DNA of 64,000 nucleotides from a phage (GCA_033239445.1 GCA_033239445.1_3953.1), one strand, 5' to 3'. Counted from the stretch's first letter, positions 3,141 through 26,984 are shown. Numbers and translations: made by a program. The notes: generated from the letters alone by a model not told the origin.

Positions 3141-4556
3141 TTACCAATCGTAGCGTTCAACCATTACTGCTTTGAGCATTACGCTGATAGGGTCAAACTT
3201 CTCACCACCAAGCAAAGCTTTTAAAGTGGCTGGAGAGAAACCAGATACCATCGCTACACCGTTATCCTTTACAGACACTTCGCAAGTACCGTTACGGTTT
3301 GCTAAGTACCAGAATACCAGTTGTGGCATCTCATATCCAGCTTTCTTGTACTTTTCTTGAATTGCTTCAAAGTTAGTACGACCATCTGCTCCATCAACCT
3401 GATTAAACTGCATATCAGAGAAGATGATAAGCTTACTAGGCATCTCTTTCTGAGTCAAGTTGTTTTTAACACCAATCTCAAGGATTCTTGCAAAAGCAGC
3501 TTGTAGGTCAGTTGAACCATACTCTACATGACTCTTCACTTGACGTAAGCGAGTCTGTAAATCACCACTCAATGTGATGAAGTGAGGTCTGCTAGAGTAA
3601 ACCATCAATTCATCTTTAAAGCAACCTGTATTACGTTCTGAAACGTACAGGGCTAAAGATACACCAATGTCTAGCGCTGTAACAGAACCATGTCGCTCCC
3701 AAGTCATAGATGAAGATACATCTGCCATGCACAGAATGTTCTCACCCTCTTTCATCCAGTTTGGTAAAGCTTTCCACTGCTCATTTGCAACGGTTGCATT
3801 ACCATAACCGACTGACTTTGTAATGTCATAAGGGTAGACTGCACCAGCATTAATCTTAGTCTCACCTTTAGTCAGTGCTGCAATGTATGCTGCATAACGC
3901 TCACCATCTTTACGACTGAAGAGTTTTTGATAACGTGCAGCAGCCAGTGAAGGAAGCTTGCTGTAATCAATCTCTCCGAACTCATTTGCTGAAATCTTTT
4001 GTTCAACAGTATCAGATAGTGCTGACAGAAGAACTCGATACTGCTTCTCTGAAAGATTTGCAAACTTACAGAAACGACGAACAAAACGCATGTGTCGTGA
4101 TTTTACTCGTGGTAACCATTTTGCTGCCAGAGCCGATGTTGCAGGGTCTAATAGTGCCGATTCTAAATGCTTGAAAGCATCTGTTTCGTAACGTGTACCA
4201 ACAAAGATTTTGAAGTCATCATAACGACCTAAATCAGAAATCTTGTCCATGATACGTAATACTTGAAACTCATCAAGAATCCCATCAGAGATTGCTTTAG
4301 TAAGAGTATAACGGAATGCTTTACGCTCACCCATACCTTCTCGTGCATCTCGCATATGTAACAGGATTCGAACTGCTACATCAATATCTTCTCGCATTGC
4401 CTTGTAAAACAAGTTTGGAAGAACTTCTACGTTTGTTCTGCTTGAACCAGCAGCTTTGTAGAAATCTACCAGTGCAGACATTGAAGAGGTGTGGTTAACA
4501 GCACCGTTTTCAGTTAAACCTGCATGTAAATGCGAGTGCTTAAATAATTCGCTCAT
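3141..4556 (-). CDS. rsr: Ro60/TROVE-family RNA-binding protein (Rsr-like) with C-terminal vWA domain
   Basis: 471 aa; MIDAS motif LCMADVSSSM, plus GSTDLQ and KLIIFSDMQF blocks, and upstream EGMGERKAFRYTLTKAI and YPYDITKSVGY, all matching remembered Ro60 landmarks (DVSxSM, GGTD, FTDNETF, HPFHIL). Confidence 0.7.
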   Translation of the reverse strand: MSELFKHSHLHAGLTENGAVNHTSSMSALVDFYKAAGSSRTNVEVLPNLFYKAMREDIDVAVRILLHMRDAREGMGERKAFRYTLTKAISDGILDEFQVLRIMDKISDLGRYDDFKIFVGTRYETDAFKHLESALLDPATSALAAKWLPRVKSRHMRFVRRFCKFANLSEKQYRVLLSALSDTVEQKISANEFGEIDYSKLPSLAAARYQKLFSRKDGERYAAYIAALTKGETKINAGAVYPYDITKSVGYGNATVANEQWKALPNWMKEGENILCMADVSSSMTWERHGSVTALDIGVSLALYVSERNTGCFKDELMVYSSRPHFITLSGDLQTRLRQVKSHVEYGSTDLQAAFARILEIGVKNNLTQKEMPSKLIIFSDMQFNQVDGADGRTNFEAIQEKYKKAGYEMPQLVFWYLANRNGTCEVSVKDNGVAMVSGFSPATLKALLGGEKFDPISVMLKAVMVERYDW

Positions 4557-13716: not shown

Positions 13717-13740
13717 AGCCCCTTAATTGGGGCTTTTTAT
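13717..13740 (+). terminator. rho-independent terminator
   Basis: agcccc-ttaatt-ggggct hairpin followed by TTTTTATT. Confidence 0.6.
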
Positions 13741-15224
13741 TGAGTAAAATTTACGAAATTTATAATTTTTATAAAATTTGGGATTCACTCCGTTCATCTT
13801 GGGTCACCATGATATGTGATAAAATATCTATACCCTTCTAAACACCCTCTCTAAGCATCATCTCTATATAGTATTATATAGTATTATATAGTATCTATAT
13901 AGCCTCTTAGTCCCTAAATAGTGCTCTCTATATAGCCCTCTATAAAGCCTTCTAAGCCTACCATTAATCAACCCTATACAATCACCTTCCTAACCTCTTC
14001 CTAGCCCCTTAGAAGCCCCTATACTCATCTTAATCTCTAGGTAAACGATAGTACCCTATATAGCAGAATCACTAGGTATTACTAAGCCTCTATATAGACT
14101 GTTATATAGCACTAAACAGGTATTCCCTGTAAAGGCTTATCCTACAAGGTCTAACACGGTACTAACAAGGTCTCTTATAAGCCTGTTAATTCCTGTTTTA
14201 TATAAGATAGTGTATAGATAGTTATTCAGAATTATAAAATTTTTATAAAATAGACTAGGTAGGTTACTTTTTAGGGTCTTTGGAGAATCTGAAAAATATC
14301 TACAGAGGATGTATATCTGCTTGGTAGCCCTTAACAGCCCTGTAACATCCCCTTTGCAAAATCTTAAAATATCATTAACAATCTCTTAACAACTCTTCCA
14401 AGTCCTTAACATCTCTCCAGAGTTCTTAACAGTCTCTTAACAGAACTAACAAGAGCTTAACAAGTCTGTAACATTACTAACAAGAGTCTAACAAGTTGCT
14501 TATAAGTTGCTAAATAGTTAAATCTTAAGAGTTATTTTGTTAAGATAATTAACAAGTTCTAAACCTTTTTAACAAGCTATTAACATGGTCACTATCTCTT
14601 GGTCTATAGTTCCTTATCCTTTCTTAGTGATTCTCTATAAAGCCCTGTATAGCTCTGTATAGCCTCTTCTAAGATTCTCCCTAGTAACTACACCCCAACT
14701 ACCTGTATAGCTCTTTGTAGGGCTTTCTAGGGGCTTATACAGGGACTTCAAAGAGTCTAACAAGCTCTTAACATACCACTAACAAGGATTTAACAAGGGG
14801 CTAACAAGCATAACTATGTTGCATTTGTTAAGATTTTGTTAAGAGAATGTAAAGGGGGCTAACTTTTACGTTACTTTTAAGCTCTTTTTAGACTCCATAA
14901 CATACTTTGAAGTAACTATCAAGCCCCTGTTTAACCATTCACAAGATTCTATCCAGCTTATAAGCTTATACCCTTATAAGATTCTTTTAAGGCTCTAGAA
15001 AGCTCTATAAAGGGTTTTTAAGAAGTGGTTAATATGATTGCTTAAGATGAGATGATAAGCCCGTATAGAGCGTTATAGAGCGTTTTAGGGATTGCCCTTC
15101 CCTTTCGGGTTATGGGCTTATATTTAAGTTGATTTGATAAGAGGATATAGAGTAAGCTATAGAGTTATTATTCTAAATGTATGGGATAGATTCTAGGAAG
15201 GTTTCTTTATAGACGTAAAAAGCC
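13741..15224. repeat. 1.5-kb non-coding region rich in short direct repeats (tattatatag x3, CTGTATAGC copies, about 15 YTAACAAG copies, tatagagcgt x2)
   Basis: No ORF of 60 aa or more on either strand; lies between the 3-prime ends of convergent gene blocks. Confidence 0.6.
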
Positions 15225-15250
15225 CCATCTAAGGGGCTGTAAAGGTGTCT
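15225..15250 (-). terminator. rho-independent terminator (minus strand)
   Basis: On the minus strand agcccc-ttagat-ggggct followed by TTTTTA. Confidence 0.55.
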
Positions 15251-15531: not shown

Positions 15532-15596
15532 TTTCAGATTCTCCAGTTTAGGAATTTAGGTTAGTGGGGAAGTCTCCCTCCCCGTTGAAAGTAATA
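15532..15596 (-). promoter_or_regulatory. conserved leader cassette, type II (GC-rich hairpin plus shared SD leader)
   Basis: ggggaagtctccctcccc hairpin followed on the minus strand by AACCTAAATTCCTAAACTGGAGAATCTGAAA-ATG. Confidence 0.5.
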
Positions 15597-15860
15597 TTAA
15601 TTCATTGCTGCATAAGTTGCAAGTCTTTTTTCATTGTATTTTGTAAGAATCTCACAAGATAAAACGTCATACTTTGCAACGGCTTCAGATTTAGTTAAAC
15701 CGAAATGGCTTACAATTTCACCATTCATGAATCCGACTACTTCATAAGATTCTGCGATGATTTCACCGTTGAACCAATCACTTTCAATACGTTTGCAAAG
15801 TTGGATATCTTCTTTGTCAGTACCGATTTGTAACAGGATAGTGATTTCTTGATTATTCAT
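15597..15860 (-). CDS. small hypothetical protein (small-gene array)
   Basis: 87 aa; conserved leader upstream. Confidence 0.55.
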   Translation of the reverse strand: MNNQEITILLQIGTDKEDIQLCKRIESDWFNGEIIAESYEVVGFMNGEIVSHFGLTKSEAVAKYDVLSCEILTKYNEKRLATYAAMN

Positions 15861-15920
15861 TTTCTAGTCTCCAGTTTAGGATTGTTGGGGAAGGTCATTC
15901 CCTCCCCGTTGATAAGTACT
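15861..15920 (-). promoter_or_regulatory. conserved leader cassette, type II
   Basis: ggggaaggtcattccctcccc hairpin plus CCTAAACTGGAGA leader. Confidence 0.5.
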
Positions 15921-16448
15921 TTATAGATTTGTGATGATTTCGTCAAGGGAATTTTCTAAGTTTTTTAAAGATTGTTCGTAAAGCCTAATTCCCCTATTTA
16001 ATGCTTCCCCTAACGTAATTTTAAAATTAGTTGTTGGGTAGTCACTTGTAAAGATGTTTTCCACTTCATAGAGTGGGTATTGTTGGTTACCCGTTCCCAT
16101 AGCATACATGCCTGTATAGTGGATTGCAATAAAAAGATTATGGGACTTAATAGAGCGCTCATAAGCCATTTTAAAGCGGTTTAACTCGTTTTTAGTTGCC
16201 TTAATAGCCATTTCGTGAATTTCTGCGACTATAGCCATATAATCATTCAGAATAAGAGAAATAGCCCCCATAAAGTTGTTGGCTGTTACCGCTTTTACAT
16301 TTGGTCGGTGTACATAAAACTTCTTACCTTCCCCTTTTGTGATAACTGCAAAAACTTTGCTCTTTAAGGTAAATTCCCAAGTATCTTTACAAGGCTTGCT
16401 CATCACTTCACGGCTACGGATTGCATTAACAGTATTAAACTTATTCAT
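15921..16448 (-). CDS. hypothetical protein (small-gene array)
   Basis: 175 aa; conserved leader upstream. Confidence 0.6.
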   Translation of the reverse strand: MNKFNTVNAIRSREVMSKPCKDTWEFTLKSKVFAVITKGEGKKFYVHRPNVKAVTANNFMGAISLILNDYMAIVAEIHEMAIKATKNELNRFKMAYERSIKSHNLFIAIHYTGMYAMGTGNQQYPLYEVENIFTSDYPTTNFKITLGEALNRGIRLYEQSLKNLENSLDEIITNL

Positions 16449-16512
16449 TCTAGATTCTCCAGTTTAGGAATTTTGTTTAGTGGGGAAGTCTCCCTCCCCG
16501 TTGATGAATACT
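16449..16512 (-). promoter_or_regulatory. conserved leader cassette, type II
   Basis: ggggaagtctccctcccc hairpin plus CCTAAACTGGAGAATCTAGA leader. Confidence 0.5.
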
Positions 16513-16653
16513 TTACTTGTTTTGATTCTGCATTGCAAGTAGTTTTTTATCAAAAAGTTTATCTGAGATTTCACCAATGATGAGCATTGCTAATGGCAAC
16601 ACAACAGAAACAATCATACCGCAAAGGATAGGGTTTTTAATGATATCTAACAT
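16513..16653 (-). CDS. small hypothetical membrane protein (46 aa)
   Basis: Below ORF-track cutoff; ATG preceded by CCTAAACTGGAGAATCAC leader; C-terminus LAMQNQNK identical to that of 20006-20353. Confidence 0.4.
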   Translation of the reverse strand: MLDIIKNPILCGMIVSVVLPLAMLIIGEISDKLFDKKLLAMQNQNK

Positions 16654-16849
16654 TTAGTGATTCTCCAGTTTAGGAAGTTGCCTTTTGAAGATACTATATA
16701 GATATGATTAGACCTTTGCAAGTACTTTTTACGCTTATCTATAAAGAATCTATTAAGTTAATCCCTTTTAGATAAACCCCCTCGAACAAAGTTACACTTG
16801 TCAAGGGGCATTGTCAATAGTTTTTCAAAAGATTTTTATAAGTTGTTGA

Positions 16850-17191
16850 TTAGCTTATAAAGATTTTTTCTGGCTTAACATAGGTTAATGACTGTTTTTT
16901 AAGCAAATCAGACCAAATGAGCGCGGCAATGTGACTATATCCCTTTTCTCTTAACTCCTGCATAGCTGATTTGCGAGTTTCGAAACGTGTAGCATAGTAT
17001 TCAGTGTTAAGGGTAGTTTTATTCCCTTCATTGTCAACATGTACAATCTGCATCACTTGAAACGGGCTTACATCTTCTCCCCTGTTCCATTGCTCAAAGT
17101 ACTTGAGACACTGCATAGGTTTCATTTTGTCGTTAACTTGGGTAGACCATGACGAATTTTCTTTATCGGTGATAATTGTTACATAGGCCAT
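16850..17191 (-). CDS. hypothetical protein (small-gene array)
   Basis: 113 aa; conserved leader upstream. Confidence 0.55.
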   Translation of the reverse strand: MAYVTIITDKENSSWSTQVNDKMKPMQCLKYFEQWNRGEDVSPFQVMQIVHVDNEGNKTTLNTEYYATRFETRKSAMQELREKGYSHIAALIWSDLLKKQSLTYVKPEKIFIS

Positions 17192-17283
17192 TTTTAGATT
17201 CTCCAGTTTAGGATTGTTGGTAAAGCTCTTTCTCTGGGGCTTAAGATACTAGCTTTTAAACCCCATGTAAAGCACTTTATTAG
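17192..17283 (-). promoter_or_regulatory. conserved promoter/leader cassette, type I (sigma70-like TTTACA-N17-TATCTT inside GGGG/CCCC inverted repeat)
   Basis: Minus strand reads TTTACAtggggtttaaaagctagTATCTTaagcccc ... CCTAAACTGGAGAATCTAAAA-ATG. Confidence 0.55.
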
Positions 17284-17505
17284 TTATTTGTAGTAATAGT
17301 ATGTAAAATCATTTATCAGGCTTCCAGCCTCATCGTTATACTGCTTATGACTAGCCAGATAACCGCCATTAGCTAGAATTTCATCAATCAACTTTTTAGC
17401 GTCATCGTTGGGAATTCTAACAGGGTTATTAAACGGTTGTAAATAGGTACGACGAACATTTGAGAATTTAAAATCAATGGTTTTTACGTTAAGAACTTGC
17501 AACAT
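17284..17505 (-). CDS. small hypothetical protein (small-gene array)
   Basis: ORF-track frame 17284-17583 trimmed: its first 26 codons translate the conserved leader (NNPKLEIQK); true start taken as the ATG after the SD. Confidence 0.5.
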   Translation of the reverse strand: MLQVLNVKTIDFKFSNVRRTYLQPFNNPVRIPNDDAKKLIDEILANGGYLASHKQYNDEAGSLINDFTYYYYK

Positions 17506-17583
17506 TTTTTGAATCTCCAGTTTAGGATTGTTGGGATGTTTCCCGTTGATGAATACTTTACTTTCTTGCGTTTTCAGTGTCAA
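17506..17583 (-). promoter_or_regulatory. conserved leader cassette, type II variant
   Basis: gggatgtttccc hairpin plus CCTAAACTGGAGATTCAAAAA leader. Confidence 0.45.
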
Positions 17584-17814
17584 CTACTTTTCTATAAGAA
17601 TCTCATATTCACCATTCACACTATCAAAGTAAATACCTTCATCATCTTCTGACTTATAGTAACATTGGATATCATCCGATGTTGGGTAGTCTTGCCTTGC
17701 TATCTGACAGGCAACAATAGCATTATTTTCGCTACCTGTAAACTCTTCTAAACCTTTAAAGTCACATTGTGAACCATTGCAGATAGATAAGATAAGATAG
17801 ATTGTTGTAAGCAT
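17584..17814 (-). CDS. small hypothetical protein
   Basis: 76 aa; own RBS, no conserved cassette; hairpin agccccgcacaggggct in its 5-prime region. Confidence 0.5.
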   Translation of the reverse strand: MLTTIYLILSICNGSQCDFKGLEEFTGSENNAIVACQIARQDYPTSDDIQCYYKSEDDEGIYFDSVNGEYEILIEK

Positions 17815-17877
17815 CTTTTAAGCCTCTTGTAAGCCCCTGTGCGGGGCTTTTCTAGTGAACTGGCATGATTCTATGGT

Positions 17878-18435
17878 TTATGCTGTTAATTCGTTTATAG
17901 CCGTTTCTGCTACGTTACATTGCATTGTGTCAAAGATATCACAATATACATTGCTCATCTCATCACTACGTTGGACTATTGCCGCAATGTTGCGTAATTC
18001 ATCCGGTATATAACCCAAGTTCCTATTATTCAGGTTAGGGACAAAGAAAGGCGCATACATAGCATTAAATTCAGTTGTGTAAACCTTTTTAATCCATTCT
18101 TTATCGAAATATTCTGTAAAGCTTGCTACGTCGCTCATGTTCTCACAGCTCCAGTCATCTTGTAAATCATCTTCTGGAATATCCAGTTCCAAGATAACAA
18201 GCTTTTGTGACTTCATTTGATAGGCTGCTGTAATGCTTGCGCTATCAAGCGCGTTTCTAATACCTTCATCTGTGATTTGTTCGTCATCCAGATTCTCTAC
18301 ATCATAGAACTTGTTAACAGGGTAGACGTAAAAACATCCATCCATATCAGAGCAATTCCAGACTCCTGATGGTTTATCACCGCCATTGATAAGGTTTACG
18401 AAGTTTTCTTGTGTAGTACCGTGGAAGCATTTCAT
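17878..18435 (-). CDS. hypothetical protein (small-gene array)
   Basis: 185 aa; conserved leader upstream. Confidence 0.6.
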   Translation of the reverse strand: MKCFHGTTQENFVNLINGGDKPSGVWNCSDMDGCFYVYPVNKFYDVENLDDEQITDEGIRNALDSASITAAYQMKSQKLVILELDIPEDDLQDDWSCENMSDVASFTEYFDKEWIKKVYTTEFNAMYAPFFVPNLNNRNLGYIPDELRNIAAIVQRSDEMSNVYCDIFDTMQCNVAETAINELTA

Positions 18436-18519
18436 TTTAGATTCTCCAGTTTAGGATTGTTGGTAAAGCTCTTTATCTGGGGCTTATCTTATCTAACTAT
18501 AAACCCCATGTAAAGGACT
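18436..18519 (-). promoter_or_regulatory. conserved promoter/leader cassette, type I (TTTACA-N17-TAAGAT)
   Basis: -35 TTTACA is the complement of 18509-18514, -10 TAAGAT the complement of 18486-18491, 17-nt spacer; followed by CCTAAACTGGAGAATCTAAA-ATG. Confidence 0.6.
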
Positions 18520-18768
18520 TTATTTAGTTTTCTTTGTAAAGATTAGTTTAACGGCAACAGTTGGTAACTCTTCAATACTTGTGAACAAAGTCACTTTTTG
18601 AGTCTTAACATTATAGCCATACTTTGAACCATAAGCCGTAAAACGGTTTACAATGTAACTGTAAGTTTTTGCAGTGTTATCTGGCATATGATATAAAAAC
18701 GGCTTGCCAAGGTTATCAAATTGTGTTAAGAGTCGGCAAGTGTCAGGGATATTCAACATATTAAACAT
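18520..18768 (-). CDS. small hypothetical protein (small-gene array)
   Basis: 82 aa; conserved leader upstream. Confidence 0.55.
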   Translation of the reverse strand: MFNMLNIPDTCRLLTQFDNLGKPFLYHMPDNTAKTYSYIVNRFTAYGSKYGYNVKTQKVTLFTSIEELPTVAVKLIFTKKTK

Positions 18769-18855
18769 TTTCAGATTCTCCAGTTTAGGATTGATTTAGT
18801 AAAGCTCTTTATCTGGGGCTATCTTATCAACTTGATAACCCCATGTAAAGCACTT
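18769..18855 (-). promoter_or_regulatory. conserved promoter/leader cassette, type I
   Basis: Minus strand TTTACAtggggttatcaagttgaTAAGATagcccc plus shared leader. Confidence 0.6.
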
Positions 18856-19104
18856 TTAGATGTTTTTATAACCTGCCGATGTGCATAAACCTTTTACAAG
18901 TTCAAAAGTCCATAATAAATCTTTGTATTCTATTTGAATCTCAGTTACAAGGTCTGTTTTTCGTTCGTTAGTTTTGAAATTCACTGTATACGTGTACTCA
19001 AAATCGAAATTACTTTTTATTTCCCCATACCGTCTACATTCTTTGTATACATCATCGAGAAAACCATTTTTCATCATACTTTTGAGTTGTGTTTTTGTTT
19101 TCAT
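18856..19104 (-). CDS. small hypothetical protein (small-gene array)
   Basis: ORF-track frame 18856-19176 trimmed; upstream 24 codons translate the conserved leader. Confidence 0.5.
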   Translation of the reverse strand: MKTKTQLKSMMKNGFLDDVYKECRRYGEIKSNFDFEYTYTVNFKTNERKTDLVTEIQIEYKDLLWTFELVKGLCTSAGYKNI

Positions 19105-19176
19105 CTTTTGAATCTCCAGTTTAGGGTTGTTTCGTTGTCTGATGAGTACTTTACTACTATGCTTTTGCAGTGTCAA
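19105..19176 (-). promoter_or_regulatory. conserved leader cassette, degenerate type II
   Basis: CCCTAAACTGGAGATTCAAAAG leader present; upstream part diverged. Confidence 0.4.
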
Positions 19177-19584
19177 TCAAATTTCTGAATAAATTGCGTC
19201 ACAAATTTCACGGAAAATCTCTTTTGAAAGATTACGCTGTAACCATGTTGCAAAGAAATCAGCAATTGCAAAGTTTGCATCAAAATCAACACATAGCCAC
19301 ACTTTAACAGCAAATCTAAACATTTTCAAGTCAAGTTCTTTATTCATTACTTTTGACTTTGACAGCATTTCCTTCATCTCATATTGAGCACCGTCAATTA
19401 TAGCTCCTGCTGCTACATCTTGCAAGGATTCTTTAAGCTGTTTTGTGTCTACTACTGCGCCCTGAATTTTACCGATGATATTATGTAGTGTTTCGTCTGG
19501 TGCTGCTGATGTTACAATGTTGATGCGGTTAATGGTCAAACGTGCTTTCAAAATTGCAACTTCTTTGTGATTAACATTAGTCAT
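19177..19584 (-). CDS. hypothetical protein (small-gene array)
   Basis: 135 aa; conserved leader upstream. Confidence 0.6.
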   Translation of the reverse strand: MTNVNHKEVAILKARLTINRINIVTSAAPDETLHNIIGKIQGAVVDTKQLKESLQDVAAGAIIDGAQYEMKEMLSKSKVMNKELDLKMFRFAVKVWLCVDFDANFAIADFFATWLQRNLSKEIFREICDAIYSEI

Positions 19585-19673
19585 TTTCTAGTCTCCAGTT
19601 TAGGTTAGTTTTAGATAAATCTCTTTATCTGGGGCTATCTTAGCAACTTGATAACCCCATGTAAAGCAATTTA
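19585..19673 (-). promoter_or_regulatory. conserved promoter/leader cassette, type I
   Basis: Minus strand TTTACAtggggttatcaagttgcTAAGATagcccc plus leader. Confidence 0.6.
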
Positions 19674-19946
19674 TTAGACTAAATACAATTTTTTACCACT
19701 AACAATAATGTAACTTACGCCGCTATTACTGTAAACATCTTGATAAATTCTGCGTAACTTTCCAAGGTATCGAACTTTCCAAGATGTAGGAATTTTCTTT
19801 CCATATCCTGTGGCGGTTTTTTGTAAACCTGCTACTTGCCAATCTAATAGGTGCTGTTCTGCTCTTAACTCTTCAAAGTTTAATACACCGTCTATATAGT
19901 GTTTTAAAGTTACGTTCAAAGTTCGACCGTCATTAGTAGTATACAT
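19674..19946 (-). CDS. small hypothetical protein (small-gene array)
   Basis: 90 aa; conserved leader upstream. Confidence 0.55.
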   Translation of the reverse strand: MYTTNDGRTLNVTLKHYIDGVLNFEELRAEQHLLDWQVAGLQKTATGYGKKIPTSWKVRYLGKLRRIYQDVYSNSGVSYIIVSGKKLYLV

Positions 19947-20005
19947 TTTCAGATTCTCCAGTTTAGGATTGTTGGGGCTTCTATCTTGCCCCGTTGATGA
20001 ATACT
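19947..20005 (-). promoter_or_regulatory. conserved leader cassette, type II
   Basis: ggggcttctatcttgcccc hairpin plus CCTAAACTGGAGAATCTGAAA leader. Confidence 0.5.
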
Positions 20006-20353
20006 TTACTTGTTTTGATTCTGCATTGCAAGCTCTTTTTTATTAATTTCTTGCGCTATCACGATATAATAATCTTTCAGGTTTATATCTTGAATTGACT
20101 CAAGAAGTATGTCATAATCACTGATTAATTTAAAATCACCGTCTAGGATGTTATCAATCCGGTATGTTTCTGCTTTGAATCGAAAGCTCATCTCTAAGCG
20201 TTTCAATTGTTCTAAGCTTAAACGCTCTAGAAAGCCCCGTACAAGGTTTATTTTTAAATCCCTTGTAAGTGCCTTATTAGCTATACTGTGCGCTTGTAAG
20301 GCTTTATAGAGCGCCACAATAGAGATAAAAATTGCAACGTATGTGATTAACAT
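20006..20353 (-). CDS. hypothetical membrane protein
   Basis: 115 aa; N-terminal hydrophobic helix; second gene of a two-gene unit with 20347-20643. Confidence 0.5.
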   Translation of the reverse strand: MLITYVAIFISIVALYKALQAHSIANKALTRDLKINLVRGFLERLSLEQLKRLEMSFRFKAETYRIDNILDGDFKLISDYDILLESIQDINLKDYYIVIAQEINKKELAMQNQNK

Positions 20354-20643
20354 TTGTTTTTACCTTTGTGGAATAGTTTACCAGTGTGACTAATTTCATA
20401 TGAATCAACCATATCTCTAGTGGTCTTAATCGATGACTTATTAGTGTTATCATAGATATCAACCTGAAGCAATGGTTTTTTGTATTCTTTACAAAAGTTC
20501 CATACACAAATTATTACTTCCTTTTTGTTAATCTTTCCATGATACCACTCTACGGCTTCAGATGTACGGCGCATAGATTCAATGAATTGGATATTACTTA
20601 ATAGCTGGCTTAATTTAGTTCTAACGTTTGCGGCAATAAACAT
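20347..20643 (-). CDS. small hypothetical protein (small-gene array)
   Basis: 98 aa; conserved leader upstream. Confidence 0.55.
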   Translation of the reverse strand: MFIAANVRTKLSQLLSNIQFIESMRRTSEAVEWYHGKINKKEVIICVWNFCKEYKKPLLQVDIYDNTNKSSIKTTRDMVDSYEISHTGKLFHKGKNKC

Positions 20644-20727
20644 TTTAGATTCTCCAGTTTAGGATTGTTTGTAAAGCTCTTTATCTGGGGCTATCTTATC
20701 AACTTGATAACCCCATGTAAAGCACTT
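20644..20727 (-). promoter_or_regulatory. conserved promoter/leader cassette, type I
   Basis: Same TTTACA-N17-TAAGAT core inside GGGG/CCCC repeat plus leader. Confidence 0.6.
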
Positions 20728-21240
20728 TTAGATATTAAAGATATTCATAACAGAATCTTTCAAGGCTTCTAAACGTTCCATTACTTCAGATTCTCCATCG
20801 GAGTTCGACACTTCCTCTTCTAATCGTGAATCTAAATCTTCCCCGTCAAGATAGCACCAATCGAAGCCATAAGCAAGAGAAAAGCTATTTAATACTGTAT
20901 TACCTTCTTTATCTTCTACCTTTGCAAATAGCACGTAGCTGTTAGCCTCTAAATCTCTTTGTAATTCATCTTGTAAGCTCTTGTAAGCCTCTATAGATGG
21001 ATTTTCGCGGCCTTGTTTAGCATAATCACTCATCAATTGTGAAAGGCTGTAATGCTGTGGAATTGCATATTTGTACCCGTTACGCTCTGGATTTTTAAGT
21101 TTGATTGTAACCCCGCCTTTGTGCTCATCGGTAAACTTCCAATTCTCCACACAATGGGATGCTTCACAAATATTAACAGCTTCATAGATGATAGTGAATT
21201 TTTCTTTTTGGACTTCAAAGGTAGCTTCAACAAAATTCAT
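20728..21240 (-). CDS. hypothetical protein (small-gene array)
   Basis: 170 aa; conserved leader upstream. Confidence 0.6.
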   Translation of the reverse strand: MNFVEATFEVQKEKFTIIYEAVNICEASHCVENWKFTDEHKGGVTIKLKNPERNGYKYAIPQHYSLSQLMSDYAKQGRENPSIEAYKSLQDELQRDLEANSYVLFAKVEDKEGNTVLNSFSLAYGFDWCYLDGEDLDSRLEEEVSNSDGESEVMERLEALKDSVMNIFNI

Positions 21241-21331
21241 TTTAGATTCTCCAGTTTAGGACTATTGGTTAGTAAAGCTCTTTATCTGGGGCTTATATTA
21301 TCTAACTATAAACCCCATGTAAAGCACTTTA
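21241..21331 (-). promoter_or_regulatory. conserved promoter/leader cassette, type I (TTTACA-N17-TAATAT)
   Basis: Minus strand TTTACAtggggtttatagttagaTAATATaagcccc plus leader. Confidence 0.6.
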
Positions 21332-21589
21332 TCAGATTAAATTGTCAGTTAATGATAAGTGCATTTTATAACCTTTCTTCGTGTAGACGTTAGTTCTACC
21401 GATTGCTTTTACACCTTTGAAAAGGTCATAGGAACTACGTTTTAAAGTAATTTCCTTATCACATTTTACGCCCCATCTTACAGCAGATTCTTTTCCGTTG
21501 TCAACCACTTTACCATTTAGTTTTTTAGCAGTTGCGCGAGCGTCATCACGAGATTTTGCAGATACAATGATGTTTTTGATAGTAGCCAT
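21332..21589 (-). CDS. small hypothetical protein (small-gene array)
   Basis: 85 aa; conserved leader upstream. Confidence 0.55.
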   Translation of the reverse strand: MATIKNIIVSAKSRDDARATAKKLNGKVVDNGKESAVRWGVKCDKEITLKRSSYDLFKGVKAIGRTNVYTKKGYKMHLSLTDNLI

Positions 21590-21680
21590 TTTTGATACTC
21601 CAGTTTAGGTTATTGTTTGGTAAAGCTCTTTATCTGGGGCTTATCTTATCTAACTATAAACCCCATGTAAAGGACTTTAT
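21590..21680 (-). promoter_or_regulatory. conserved promoter/leader cassette, type I
   Basis: TTTACA-N17-TAAGAT core plus CCTAAACTGGAGTATCAAAA leader. Confidence 0.6.
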
Positions 21681-22061
21681 TTAGTTAATTTTGAAAACTG
21701 TAACGTAGCCGTCACTACCAATAGTTTGAGATACTCCAGCTTTCTCTACATCATACCCCATTTTATCAAGATGGTACATTGCATCTTCATACCCATATTT
21801 ACCGCCTTGATAGCGTCTTTTTTCACAGCGTATCACAGTTTTACCACGTCCTGCAATAGCATTTATTATAGCTTTTTCACCGGATAGTGTACCGTCAAGC
21901 ATAGTAGCTTTGTAGTGGTTAATACGGTTACCATTAACATCATACTTAAAATTGTAAGCGTGAACAACAATTATTTTTCCTTTGAAGTTTTCTTTCATAG
22001 TTTCCTCTAAGATACTACGAAAGTTTTCTTTGTTGATAAATTTAGGCGCACGATATTTCAT
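21681..22061 (-). CDS. hypothetical protein (small-gene array)
   Basis: 126 aa; conserved leader upstream. Confidence 0.6.
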   Translation of the reverse strand: MKYRAPKFINKENFRSILEETMKENFKGKIIVVHAYNFKYDVNGNRINHYKATMLDGTLSGEKAIINAIAGRGKTVIRCEKRRYQGGKYGYEDAMYHLDKMGYDVEKAGVSQTIGSDGYVTVFKIN

Positions 22062-22145
22062 TTTAGATTCTCCAGTTTAGGATTGTTGGTAAAGCTCTTT
22101 ATCTGGGGCTTAAGATACTAGCTTTTAAACCCCATGTAAAGCACT
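22062..22145 (-). promoter_or_regulatory. conserved promoter/leader cassette, type I
   Basis: TTTACA-N17-TATCTT core plus leader. Confidence 0.55.
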
Positions 22146-22352
22146 TTAAACGTTATAATAATAAATTGCTGTATGCCTTGTAAACTGTCTTGTATGAGTT
22201 GTCAAATAACAATCAGACCTGATTGACGTATCAACATATTCATCAAAATCCTTTTCTGAGATACGTTGCCAAACATCACAAATTAGCATATAGAAACGAC
22301 GTTTATTTGTTTTGTTGTTGTCAACAATCATTAACTCACGTTGATATAACAT
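22146..22352 (-). CDS. small hypothetical protein (first gene of the array)
   Basis: 68 aa; conserved leader upstream. Confidence 0.5.
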   Translation of the reverse strand: MLYQRELMIVDNNKTNKRRFYMLICDVWQRISEKDFDEYVDTSIRSDCYLTTHTRQFTRHTAIYYYNV

Positions 22353-22410
22353 TTTTAGATTCTCCAGTTTAGGATTGTTGGGATGTTTCCCGTTGATGCA
22401 AATACTATAA
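22353..22410 (-). promoter_or_regulatory. conserved leader cassette, type II variant
   Basis: gggatgtttccc hairpin plus CCTAAACTGGAGAATCTAAAA leader. Confidence 0.45.
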
Positions 22411-22603
22411 GACTGGATTTATGAAGTCAACAAAATTTTTAAAAATATTTTCGATGCTTCGTGAATAGAACGCACGTATGCGAATACACTAAAACAGAAA
22501 TCTAGTCAAGAATTATTTTTCAGTTCTCTACAAATTTTTAGCTTGACTTTTAGGAGGAAGGGGAGTAAGAGGGGATGGTGGGTCTGGCTTCCTACAGCTA
22601 CCT

Positions 22604-22815
22604 GCCTGCACAATTTGAAAATGAATTTTCCCTTTGGAGTCCAACTGCATCTGCACAAATTGAAAATGAAAAAGCTCTTTGGAGTCTAGACCTGCACGTT
22701 TTGAAAATGAATTTTCCCTTTGGAGTCCAGCTAAAGAAATCTGTCCAGAGTTCTACAAAATAATACCTGCACAAATTTGAAATGAAAAAGCCCCCCTTAC
22801 CTGAGATTTAAAACT
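22604..22815. repeat. four imperfect tandem direct repeats of about 45 bp
   Basis: Units at about 22604, 22644, 22690 and 22774 share CTGCACAA(A)TTTGAAAATGAA ... CTTTGGAGTC; non-coding region between the small-gene array and the macro-domain gene. Confidence 0.6.
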
Positions 22816-22856
22816 CAAACTTTGGAGGGCTTGTCTATATTTATCTAGGTGACTTA

Positions 22857-23651
22857 TTAGTTACGTGCTTCAACATAGTTTACGTCTTCATGTGTGATAT
22901 AATATTCTGCAAACTCTTCTGTAGTCGCATTGATATACACACTTGCATCATCACCAAACGTTACCGCTCTGTGGTAGTGGCCCTGTAACGGGTGGGTAAC
23001 TTGAGCGTTACTTTGATTGTACTTCTCAACCGGAGGGTAACTGGTGTGTACCTTGCCATTACGCTTCACCTTGAGGGTAACTTTATCCTTGCCTACCACA
23101 GCAACACCATCAAAGTATTGAGGCTCACTGAAGTTCTCCCAACCAGTAACAGGACTAGTCAACTGACTGTACATCTTATCTTCATAGACATACATATATA
23201 CGTCAACATCTTTCATGGTCTGATTAATAATGGACAGCACAGCCATACTATCAAGACCACCAATCCCTGCACCAATCATAGGGAGTCCAACCTTCTTAAG
23301 CTGGTTTACTTTACAGTAGTTGTTAAGACGCTGTAAAGCTGCTTCTAAGGCATTGTATCGTGCATTTTTTCCAGTGATAACCTGAGTATAAAGGTTAGCA
23401 ATTCGACCCTGCTTCAAACGTGCTACAGAGATGTTACCAAGCATTAGATGCTTAGGGTTATGGTTTTCACCACCTACTGTAGCATAAACTTCAGCGTCAG
23501 TTTCATAAGCTTTTGGGTAGCGTTTAGCAATTGTTGCTGCGATACCTGCACCCATCAAGTTCATGCAGTTACAACCGTGACCAATGATATCAAACTTCTT
23601 ACCATCAAAGTCTTTAAAGATATCACCTTTAATAATTTTTACGATACCCAT
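22857..23651 (-). CDS. macro-domain protein (putative ADP-ribose binding or hydrolase) with C-terminal extension
   Basis: N-terminal KGDIF ... DIIGHGCNCMNLMGAGIAATIAKRYP resembles the macro-domain core; start trimmed to ATG at 23651, which overlaps the upstream stop. Confidence 0.5.
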   Translation of the reverse strand: MGIVKIIKGDIFKDFDGKKFDIIGHGCNCMNLMGAGIAATIAKRYPKAYETDAEVYATVGGENHNPKHLMLGNISVARLKQGRIANLYTQVITGKNARYNALEAALQRLNNYCKVNQLKKVGLPMIGAGIGGLDSMAVLSIINQTMKDVDVYMYVYEDKMYSQLTSPVTGWENFSEPQYFDGVAVVGKDKVTLKVKRNGKVHTSYPPVEKYNQSNAQVTHPLQGHYHRAVTFGDDASVYINATTEEFAEYYITHEDVNYVEARN

Positions 23652-23652
23652 A

Positions 23653-23853
23653 TTAGTAATGCTCCCAACGTTCGTTATCTTCAGATGGTTTAACTCGGTT
23701 ACCTTCATGGTCTACCCATAGAGCACCGCAACCTTCACAGATTACTGGCATTGCTGAACCAGCTTCAAATTCTGCCTTTGTAAAGAGACCTTTTAAGTCT
23801 CCTGTATCTTTTCCAAACATCTCAACAGAACACTTAGTGCAGAAATCAGCCAT
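23653..23853 (-). CDS. small zinc-ribbon-like protein
   Basis: 66 aa with CxxC ... CxxC (CTKCS, CEGCG). Confidence 0.45.
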   Translation of the reverse strand: MADFCTKCSVEMFGKDTGDLKGLFTKAEFEAGSAMPVICEGCGALWVDHEGNRVKPSEDNERWEHY

Positions 23854-25697: not shown

Positions 25698-26393
25698 TCA
25701 GTTTTTAACAAGCATTGTTTTGATGTGTGGTAAGATTCTTTCAACCTTCTCCACGTTCTTCACTGTATCTTCTATAAAGCATACTACATCATAGTAAGGT
25801 AGAATGCAAGACTGAAGCATACGAACTTTCAAACTTTCTGCACTAATCTCATTGTCACCAAATCCACGCATAAACAGTAGGAAATCACTGTCTACATTCT
25901 CATTCAGGAAAAGATGTGTGACAACTCTTTGTGATTCACCACGAGCAGTTAAGAATCCTATATCAGCATTTCTTGATATACCACACAGAATGTTAAAAAC
26001 ATATGTTGGTTTAGCTCTGCGAGAGTCTACCAAGTTAGTATACTGTGAGTAAGTACCATCATCTAACAAAGTTGCATTAAGTTTCTTGTCAAAGCTTGTA
26101 AGAACACCATCAATGTCTGCTAAGACCATTTTACGTTTTTCTTCCAAGTTCTTTGCAACCAAGATAAGGCTGTTACGACCAACATATACAGCTTTACCTG
26201 TTAGCAAATCCTGACAAGGAATCTGTGTCTTTGTTGAGTGGAAGTCTTCAAAGCTACACACAACATTTCTTGCTGTATCTGCAAAGTCAGCTTTAGCAAT
26301 ATCTGACCAACTTGCAGAACTGATATCTAAATCAAGTGGCTTGATATCATAAGCATGACACAGAACCATGTCAAATTGTTTTGATTCGCTCAT
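25698..26393 (-). CDS. HAD-superfamily phosphatase-like protein (possible nucleotidase)
   Basis: 231 aa; motif I-like LADIDGVL (DxDG). Confidence 0.4.
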   Translation of the reverse strand: MSESKQFDMVLCHAYDIKPLDLDISSASWSDIAKADFADTARNVVCSFEDFHSTKTQIPCQDLLTGKAVYVGRNSLILVAKNLEEKRKMVLADIDGVLTSFDKKLNATLLDDGTYSQYTNLVDSRRAKPTYVFNILCGISRNADIGFLTARGESQRVVTHLFLNENVDSDFLLFMRGFGDNEISAESLKVRMLQSCILPYYDVVCFIEDTVKNVEKVERILPHIKTMLVKN

Positions 26394-26943
26394 ATTTTAC
26401 CTTTTTAATGTTTGTTGCAAACTCACATTGAGCCAGCAGTTTCATGTTATTGTACACATCTTGAGAGTATTGTCTAGCCTTTGGAATCTTGTATTTGTAA
26501 CCAGCATTATAAGAAGCTAGGACACGCTTCATAGAGTACTTTCCATCTGGGTTACCATGAACCTTAGTCCAGAATAATAGCTCTTTATGAGCCTCTTTCG
26601 CTGAGTAATGGAAGTCACTTACTAACTTCTTCTTAGCAACCTTTGGAGATACCTTGTTACGCTTTACAACAGTCTTCAAGTGATTCTGGAAAACACCATA
26701 ATCATGAGTCTTTTTATTTTCTAACATGACACCTAATTGTGACTCTTGTAAGGCTATAGCTGCTAAAGGGATTCCCCAACCTTTCCCCATCTGCCCTTCG
26801 CCATAGTTATATGCTTTTAACATATTAACTTTCTGGCTGATTGTAAGCTCTGGACAGTCAGATGCTGTAGCTAAATGTGCTGTAAAGAATAAGCACAAAC
26901 CTAAAACAAATTTCTTCATTTGCACTCCTATTTTGTTAAACAT
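26371..26943 (-). CDS. secreted lytic-transglycosylase-like (SLT domain) protein
   Basis: 190 aa; N-terminal signal peptide; ALQESQLG ... DYGVFQNH resembles the SLT catalytic E-S and D-x-G-x-x-Q signature. Confidence 0.45.
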   Translation of the reverse strand: MFNKIGVQMKKFVLGLCLFFTAHLATASDCPELTISQKVNMLKAYNYGEGQMGKGWGIPLAAIALQESQLGVMLENKKTHDYGVFQNHLKTVVKRNKVSPKVAKKKLVSDFHYSAKEAHKELLFWTKVHGNPDGKYSMKRVLASYNAGYKYKIPKARQYSQDVYNNMKLLAQCEFATNIKKVKYERIKTI

Positions 26944-26984
26944 GCAGACAATTATACACTAACCTGCACATTTTTCAAATAAAA

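Follow-up and report, generated by a model that had tools for sequence, protein, structure and literature searches.

The window, that is, the whole stretch of 64,000 nucleotides that was analysed, comes from a phage similar to Mooglevirus, within the Ounavirinae, the subfamily of Felix O1. The region considered here shares 94-97% nucleotide identity with Shigella phages Sf13-Sf19 and Citrobacter phages Mordin and Michonne (Mooglevirus), and about 75% with Suspvirus and Felixounavirus. All the genes flanking the repeat array are encoded on the minus strand. On this strand, rIIA and rIIB are followed by a gene annotated as RegB-like, the polynucleotide kinase gene, the spanin genes, a macro-domain gene, a non-coding gap and the small early genes. 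The gap itself presents, in the same direction, a strong terminator, four repeat units, a C-rich box and promoters, and it leads into 16 small early genes. The features of the locus are the following:

22146-22352, minus strand: first small early gene
22352-22373, minus strand: leader CCTAAACTGGAG and start codon of the first small early gene, conserved
22353-22856, 504 bp: non-coding gap holding the array
22402-22455, minus strand: main early promoter TTGACT-17-TAGTAT with an AT-rich, UP-like upstream stretch (promoter scan)
22504-22548: back-to-back TTGACT elements around an AT-rich spacer (22509-22504 on the minus strand, 22543-22548 on the plus strand; by eye)
22553-22583, minus strand: C-rich box ACCCACCATCCCCTCTTACTCCCCTTCCTCC, G-rich on the plus strand
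22606-22641, minus strand: unit 1 (A-type), GACTCCAAAGGGAAAATTCATTTTCAAATTGTGCAG
22651-22686, minus strand: unit 2 (T-type), GACTCCAAAGAGCTTTTTCATTTTCAATTTGTGCAG, without stable hairpin (-2.4 kcal/mol, z = +0.8)
22692-22727, minus strand: unit 3 (A-type), GACTCCAAAGGGAAAATTCATTTTCAAAACGTGCAG, the unit missing from three-copy variants
22767-22790, minus strand: unit 4 (T-type), CTTTTTCATTTCAAATTTGTGCAG, doubling as terminator tail
22788-22833, minus strand: intrinsic terminator hairpin ending the rIIA-to-macro-domain block (-20.7 kcal/mol, z = -4.2)
22857-23708, minus strand: macro-domain "phosphatase" gene
26951-26982, minus strand: looser copy of the motif, TTATTT-N7-GTGCAG, directly after the rIIB terminator

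The presence of four repeats at the head of the small-gene array, proposed in a sequence-only reading of this DNA, was recovered with Tandem Repeats Finder, a repeat search and pattern searches. Tandem Repeats Finder reported positions 22605-22729 (period 45/41, 2.9 copies, score 146). The repeat search found copies of 42 nt at three positions (22605, 22650 and 22691), together with a 25-nt family that has four members (22606, 22651, 22692 and 22767). The number of four proposed for the units therefore stands, but not their description as regular 45-bp units, since they are spaced by 45, 41 and 75 bp. Similarly, the second half of the repeat (CTTTGGAGTC) is present in three copies, whereas the fourth copy enters the terminator stem at this point, and the stretch is non-coding as stated, although it measures 504 bp instead of 450 bp. 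The 20-mer CTGCACAAATTGAAAATGAA, with up to three mismatches, has four matches in the 64 kb, all of them in the array (0.02 expected; none of 100 shuffled sequences reached four). The bipartite core TCATTT-N(5-9)-GTGCAG was also found four times in the 64 kb and only in the array, for 0.08 copies expected. These four copies (22767-22785, 22692-22710, 22651-22669 and 22606-22624 in minus-strand reading) all have a spacer of seven bases (TCATTT-N7-GTGCAG) and the same orientation, forming direct repeats of 18-19 bp that read from TCATTT to GTGCAG along the direction of transcription. No further strict copy of the core was detected in the rest of the window or in the remaining 26 kb of the Mordin genome.

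At the upstream end of the gap, the terminator hairpin is also annotated in wV8. In the alignments, its 5' arm differs between genera with pairing maintained, and its U-tract (CTTTTTCATTT) is at the same time the first half of unit 4. A-rich and U-rich runs flank the hairpin, one on each side, and it could terminate transcription in both directions. Downstream of the units, the C-rich box is nearly invariant among the aligned Mooglevirus, Suspvirus and Felixounavirus, and a related box exists in Kolesnikvirus. The box is missing from tootiki, phiWec177 and BPSELC-1, which have an unrelated module at its position, with CCCACC motifs on the opposite strand. The C-rich box includes CCTCTTAC, which resembles boxA of lambda nutR (CGCTCTTAC). 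An insertion, CTGTCTCTAGAGACAG, is found within the box of Escherichia phage VpaE1_ev035 (LR699048), with CTCTTACTCCCCCT duplicated on its two sides; it looks like the scar of a transposase mosaic end or an assembly artefact.

The back-to-back TTGACT elements possibly form a divergent promoter pair, the plus-strand member of which would be aimed into the array. In the window, their -10-like hexamers are poor (TATTCG and TAAGAG, by eye), and the plus-strand candidate, TTGACT-17-TAAGAG, is weak, its -10-like hexamer being without the final T. The counterpart in Kolesnikvirus is a good divergent promoter pair (10/12 for each member), and the sigma-70-like promoter that faces the array on the antisense strand reads TTGACG-18-TATACT (10/12). 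The alternative module of the tootiki type presents at the same position TTGACT-N14-TGG-TAGCCT (by eye), a plausible promoter. The main early promoter, for its part, is kept in all aligned relatives. Its UP-like part includes the AT-rich stretch 22431-22455, which lies about 150 bp from the nearest unit. None of the motif copies of the array overlaps the main early promoters, which are 130-330 bp away.

The leader CCTAAACTGGAG occurs in 16 exact copies in the window (15541-22373, minus strand; 0.35 expected), one 5' of each small gene, which indicates that the Shine-Dalgarno sequence of the small genes is GGAG in a fixed context. The RegB endoribonuclease of T4 cuts GGAG in early mRNAs, and a gene annotated as similar to it (26371-26943 in the window) is found in the same genomes as the GGAG leaders. 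Elsewhere in the window, a 471-aa protein (3141-4556, minus strand) adjoins a block of 16 tRNA genes and matches the "RNA-binding protein" of Mordin, with a vWA domain and DUF2828. According to the PhageMaP preprint, gp130, its counterpart in Bas63, is structurally similar to Ro60, and the same preprint speculates that some of the "tRNA" genes near gp130 are Y RNAs.

The fifth and looser copy of the motif, after rIIB, overlaps the -35 element and the spacer of a sigma-70-like promoter (TTGAAA-16-TATAAT, 11/12), at about -38 to -20. It is kept in Mooglevirus and Felixounavirus, and was looked for without success in Kolesnikvirus and in the unclassified contig described below. This copy could share its ancestry with unit 4, as a terminator tail with the sequence downstream of it.

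We then considered the conservation of the array. It is syntenic in Mooglevirus, Suspvirus, Felixounavirus and Kolesnikvirus, and in one unclassified 88-kb contig of IMG/VR (3300045988_063805, hereafter L217). Alignments of eight, then thirteen relatives place the four units in register in the first three genera. Comparison of the Mooglevirus group with the Felixounavirus/Suspvirus group gives an identity of 99.5% for the half-sites, against 62% for the N7 spacer and 62% for the DNA between units. In Kolesnikvirus (Erwinia phage vEam_S_24 and Salmonella phage SE5), the macro-domain protein shows 35% amino-acid identity, and ordinary blastn against the window locus gave no match. The gap that follows the macro-domain gene in these phages contains four units, TTTTTCATTTTCAATTTGTGCAT, spaced by 37, 37 and 39 bp, and these units are the sole parts to align in a sensitive blastn between the window and the Kolesnikvirus loci. 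Over about 30 nt, the Felixounavirus ortholog of unit 1 is nearly identical to unit 3 of Kolesnikvirus. In L217, four units also come after the macro-domain gene, with spacings of 36, 148 and 38 bp. Metagenome contigs provided extra Felix-O1-like copies and no new lineage, and a 14-mer scan of IMG/VR returned mostly unrelated contigs.

The number of repeats, whose free variation among isolates had been named as an argument against a functional array, does not vary freely. Four units are present in 30 of 35 distinct arrays and three in the other 5, and we never found 0-2 units or more than four. The three-copy state is a clean unit-to-unit deletion. The spacing between units, in turn, depends on the lineage (45/41/75 in the window and 73/39/45 in another lineage, besides the 37/37/39 and 36/148/38 given above), which makes a fixed looped architecture unlikely. 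Phages of the Si3 type had their upstream gene and the 5' arm of the terminator replaced, while retaining the 3' arm and the units. Likewise, tootiki, phiWec177 and BPSELC-1 retain the units and the promoters despite the swap of the C-rich box. The array thus survives the exchange of modules on both sides, and the C-rich box is no obligatory partner. On the 5' side of TCATTT, the units have a flank of five nucleotides that belongs to one of two types, T5 or A4-5. The succession of types is T, A, T, A for the window, T, T, A, T for Kolesnikvirus and A throughout for L217, so that the type is not tied to unit position across lineages. In L217, moreover, the TCATTT-N7-GTGCA units (about 640-1010) lie directly beside a run of TTAACA-type repeats. 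Similar TTAACA-type repeats are found in the window 6.5 kb from the array, at the far end of the small-gene array, and the adjacency in L217 suggests that the two families of repeats may belong together.

Several explanations of the array can be set aside or are improbable in view of these data. A protein-coding gene had been annotated at this place, either on the plus strand (22575-22763, 62 aa, PHROG 15689) or, in wV8, on the minus strand. The plus-strand frame is annotated in Mordin, Michonne, Moogle, CHB7 and mistaenkt and matches phrog_15689, and substitutions within the Moogle clade show a slight excess at third positions (e.g. 4/4/8). However, phiSUSP1 lacks the start codon and has a shifted frame, ESh21, mistaenkt and UAB_Phi87 have in-frame stops, the indels do not come in multiples of three, and outside the Moogle clade substitutions are spread evenly over codon positions (e.g. 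17/16/19). The annotated lengths range from 62 to 102 aa, the strand varies between records, and some records have no ORF. The match to phrog_15689 merely mirrors these annotations. A gene is thus highly improbable here; as the sequence-only reading had it, the frame exists and merely translates the repeats, its reading frame not being conserved. Tandem terminators were also rejected: in units 1-3, the segments that precede the U-rich part fold at -2.4 to -4.0 kcal/mol (z = +0.4 to +0.8), compared with -14.8 and -20.7 kcal/mol for real terminators, and units without a stable hairpin are not terminators. A stable GC-rich hairpin with a U-tract was found solely at 22788-22833. The units could instead be an evolutionary relic, tandem duplicates of the terminator tail and the sequence downstream of it, functionless or acting as weak back-up terminators. 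The terminators of the phage end in TTTTTYATTT, unit 2 (GACTCC-AAAG-AGC-TTTTTCATTT) looks like a truncated form of the canonical GGCTCC-TTCG-GGAGCC-TTTTTCATTT, and some isolates have lost exactly one unit. The units probably did arise, judging from their sequence, by duplication of a terminator tail with about 25 nt of downstream DNA. Nevertheless, half-sites that are about 99.5% identical in surroundings at 62%, units that persist in Kolesnikvirus and L217 where the flanks are unalignable, and the unstable hairpins of units 1-3 make a relic improbable: selection has since kept TCATTT and GTGCA, and not the hairpin. A genome terminus or packaging signal is the least credible of these explanations. 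In T7-like phages, the ends lie between the end of a gene block and the early promoters, which is the location of the array, and the deposited record of Escherichia phage Andreotti (MN850610, 1-235) begins within the array. This record is about 4-5 kb shorter than those of its relatives, and its start is probably an assembly break at the repeats and not a true terminus. In the related phage UAB_Phi87, Bal31 digestion and run-off sequencing located the physical ends (PMC4837284). The UAB_Phi87 record has identical ends of 542 bp, which lie within the tRNA region and by homology fall about 1.3 kb beyond the left edge of the window (the part concerned being positions 1-123 and the DNA before them), roughly 22 kb from the repeats; this refutes the packaging element that had been suggested. 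Short direct terminal repeats of about 580-610 bp are described in Felix-O1-like phages (PMC8303462, PMC6454146, PMC4837284). The Fifi318 record, rearranged from PhageTerm output, starts between the tRNA block and the terminase gene.

Other explanations involve an RNA or a replication origin. A globally structured RNA was rejected: the sense and antisense strands fold with z = +0.77 and +0.05, respectively, and the covariance models of Rfam 15 gave only chance-level matches outside the array (E >= 0.27, far below gathering scores). The plus strand might still produce an antisense non-coding RNA of about 300 nt, fired by the plus-strand promoter through the G-rich box and the four units and stopped at the bidirectional hairpin, with repeated UGCAC...AAAUGA modules that would bind a protein or another RNA. 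The array-facing promoters of Kolesnikvirus, of the tootiki-type module and of the window, together with a hairpin that has A-rich and U-rich sides, are consistent with this model, and the succession of promoter, repeats and terminator is the layout of type III antitoxin arrays. Against it stand the defective -10 hexamer of the window, a plus strand that folds no better than its shuffles, the A5/U5 flips between units, which would alter the RNA, the fact that GGAG and other plus-strand features are not kept in Kolesnikvirus, and the lack of any match in Rfam. Nor was a similar repeat found in the genomes of 185,579 bacterial species (one genome per species), in 72,556 plasmids or in 5,426 E. 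coli genomes. Owing to the promoter facing the array and the possibly bidirectional hairpin, the antisense RNA stays a live rival, though we consider it fairly unlikely. An array of RegB targets on the plus strand was discarded, as GGAG is not kept in the Kolesnikvirus units. The array could also imitate a host repeat or act as its decoy, be it as the pseudo-antitoxin of a type III toxin-antitoxin system or by resembling a CRISPR repeat. The unit length of 37-45 nt falls in the range of type III antitoxin repeats, and the invariant AAAAUGA of the plus strand contains AAAU, at which ToxN cuts. However, the matches in bacterial genomes were unrelated repeats, many of them with periods that are multiples of three and none in Enterobacterales. 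Plasmids gave nothing related (three short chance-level matches), E. coli genomes gave no match, and no host antitoxin array linked to ToxN or AbiQ and similar to the units was found in any of these three sets. This absence of a host counterpart already largely refutes the mimic, to which we give very little credence, and the irregular spacing (41/45/75) also speaks against it. The main rival to a transcriptional binding array is an iteron-type replication origin, in which the units would bind an initiator and the GC-skewed box with the AT-rich stretch of the divergent promoters would serve as the site of transcriptional activation and unwinding. The array has three or four direct repeats of about 19 bp, in one orientation and unique in the genome, and next to them a GC-rich box and then an AT-rich stretch with promoters on both strands, a layout resembling that of plasmid and lambda origins. 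In addition, the L217 units adjoin a TTAACA-repeat region that is like a 1.5-kb repeat-rich non-coding stretch of the window. That stretch (about 13740-15230) is located between convergent terminators, closes the other end of the small-gene array, and contains CTTGTTA/TGTTAAG repeats at periods of about 10-11 bp and CTATA[N]AG[R]GC; it is itself a candidate origin or another cis element, and at least as good a candidate for the origin as the array. Moreover, the units are spaced by 37-75 bp in a lineage-variable manner, without the regular, helically phased close packing at about 22 bp of classical iterons, no initiator gene was recognised among the neighbouring small proteins, and the GC skew follows the direction of transcription and gives no origin signal. 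We found no description of a replication origin in the literature searched on Felix-O1-like phages. An origin at the array is a minority possibility.

The reading that we tentatively prefer, without holding it to be probable in absolute terms, is that the array is a row of putative sites at which a protein would bind the DNA in a sequence-specific manner and thereby act on the early control region, most likely on its transcription. This corresponds to the regulator-binding array of the sequence-only reading: near-invariant half-sites, free spacers, conservation over the whole subfamily and A/T flips of the flanks make it the best supported part of that proposal, the protein being its conjectural part. 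Three characteristics favour DNA over RNA. The T5/A4-5 flips are one of them, since duplex DNA contains an A-tract in both cases, on one strand or the other, whereas an RNA would be altered. Another is the presence of two short invariant blocks around a variable AT-rich spacer of fixed length, which is typical of protein-DNA recognition in two adjacent grooves. The third is that neither strand is structured. The copy after rIIB, inside an 11/12 promoter, counts for a role in transcription as far as can be judged from the motif. On the other hand, natural isolates can do without one unit (5 of 35 distinct arrays), which speaks against binding sites, as do the lineage-dependent spacing, the distance from the main early promoters and the lack of the copy after rIIB in Kolesnikvirus and L217. 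The T-type units also resemble the phage terminator tails TTTTTYATTT, so that their conservation could in part reflect origin and not function.

We infer the following scheme. A putative protein, encoded by the phage or provided by the host as a factor common to Enterobacterales, would read the half-sites TCATTT and GTGCA, about 12-13 bp apart across the AT-rich spacer. On three or four sites in the same orientation, a nucleoprotein complex would then form in the interval that separates the terminator of the rIIA-macro-domain block from the clustered promoters of the small early genes. Such a complex might set or switch the activity of the early control region: it could, for example, shut off the early promoters, prevent traffic from one block to the other or act on the divergent promoter pair. 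The single related site would act inside the promoter after rIIB. Compared by eye with the consensus sequences for sigma-54, the MotA box, the MarA/SoxS/Rob marbox, IHF, Fis, the DnaA box, OmpR/PhoB, EcoKI and Chi, the motif appears to fit none of them at its invariant positions; in particular, TCATTT and GTGCA do not coincide with the core positions of IHF or marbox sites. A general promoter motif of the phage was rejected, as the genome has no other copy besides the looser one after rIIB. Some relatives have the motif TATA[N]AG[R]G behind units 1 and 4; this motif clusters in the non-coding region at 13.8-15.0 kb and not upstream of genes. A sigma-70 promoter in each unit was also rejected: only unit 4 scores 9/12 (TTTTCA-17-TATTAT), and its -10 element is not kept in relatives.

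The array can be compared with several known systems. The iterons of the lambda origin and of plasmids F, P1, R6K, RK2 and pSC101 are 3-7 direct repeats of 17-22 bp in the same orientation. Like the array, they are unique in their replicon and close to promoters. AT-rich DNA adjoins them, for which the candidate here is the UP-like stretch about 150 bp from the nearest unit. Their protein recognises an asymmetric site in two parts, which recalls the bipartite asymmetric motif described here. They differ from it by their packing at intervals of about 22 bp, against 37-75 bp with lineage-specific values, and by their initiator, no gene for which was recognised here. Phages also have asymmetric operators and enhancer-like clusters, such as the C1 operators of P1 and the O1-O3/IAS region of Mu. 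As in the array, several non-palindromic sites lie in an early control region, and one related site overlaps a promoter; unlike them, the array does not overlap the main early promoters, and it has no sequence similarity to them. To our knowledge, no repressor is known in the virulent Felix-O1-like phages. The ToxI arrays of type III antitoxins and the pseudo-ToxI of phage PhiTE are tandem non-coding repeats of about 36-45 nt. The array resembles them as a set of tandem non-coding phage repeats that may lie between a promoter and a terminator of the same strand, and departs from them in having no counterpart in host genomes, plasmids or E. coli, an irregular spacing and A/T flips that do not suit an RNA unit. 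Finally, with regard to the phage's own terminators, unit 4 is a real tail and the T-type units share with them the TTTTTCATTT tail and remnants of the GGCTCC stem, but units 1-3 have lost the hairpin, and the conserved TCATTT and GTGCA are lacking in the terminators elsewhere in the genome.

The array is thus familiar as a kind, that of repeated cis-acting sites in a phage control region, and appears to be new as a specific, subfamily-wide element. In the literature searched, we found no description of the array and no transcript map for Felix-O1-like phages, and the Bas63 PhageMaP preprint contains no data on the intergenic region of the array. Other direct repeats are listed in the paper on the Felix O1 genome, which does not mention the present ones and says that how transcription is timed is not understood (PMC3185647).

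Felix O1 and its relatives are classic phages for typing and therapy. In all the lineages examined, a unique bipartite motif of 18 bp is present in three or four copies at one syntenic site, in surroundings that have diverged beyond alignment, which offers an experimental handle. The array is usable as a bait for the factor that would bind it, Bas63, Sf14 and Felix O1 are tractable phages in which it could be altered, and it gives a direct approach to the question of the timing of transcription. The annotation is corrected as well: many GenBank records, and phrog_15689, place ORFs where the array lies, on one strand or the other, and these are very probably not genes. Felix-O1-like phages have, as far as we know, no RNA polymerase of their own and no known sigma-modifying proteins. 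It is conceivable, at rather long odds, that the array is the recognition element of a master protein of these phages, either a replication initiator or an early-to-middle switch factor; a remoter variant would make it a non-coding DNA or RNA decoy against host defence. If the master protein were a replication initiator, the array would be the origin of Felix-O1-like phages.
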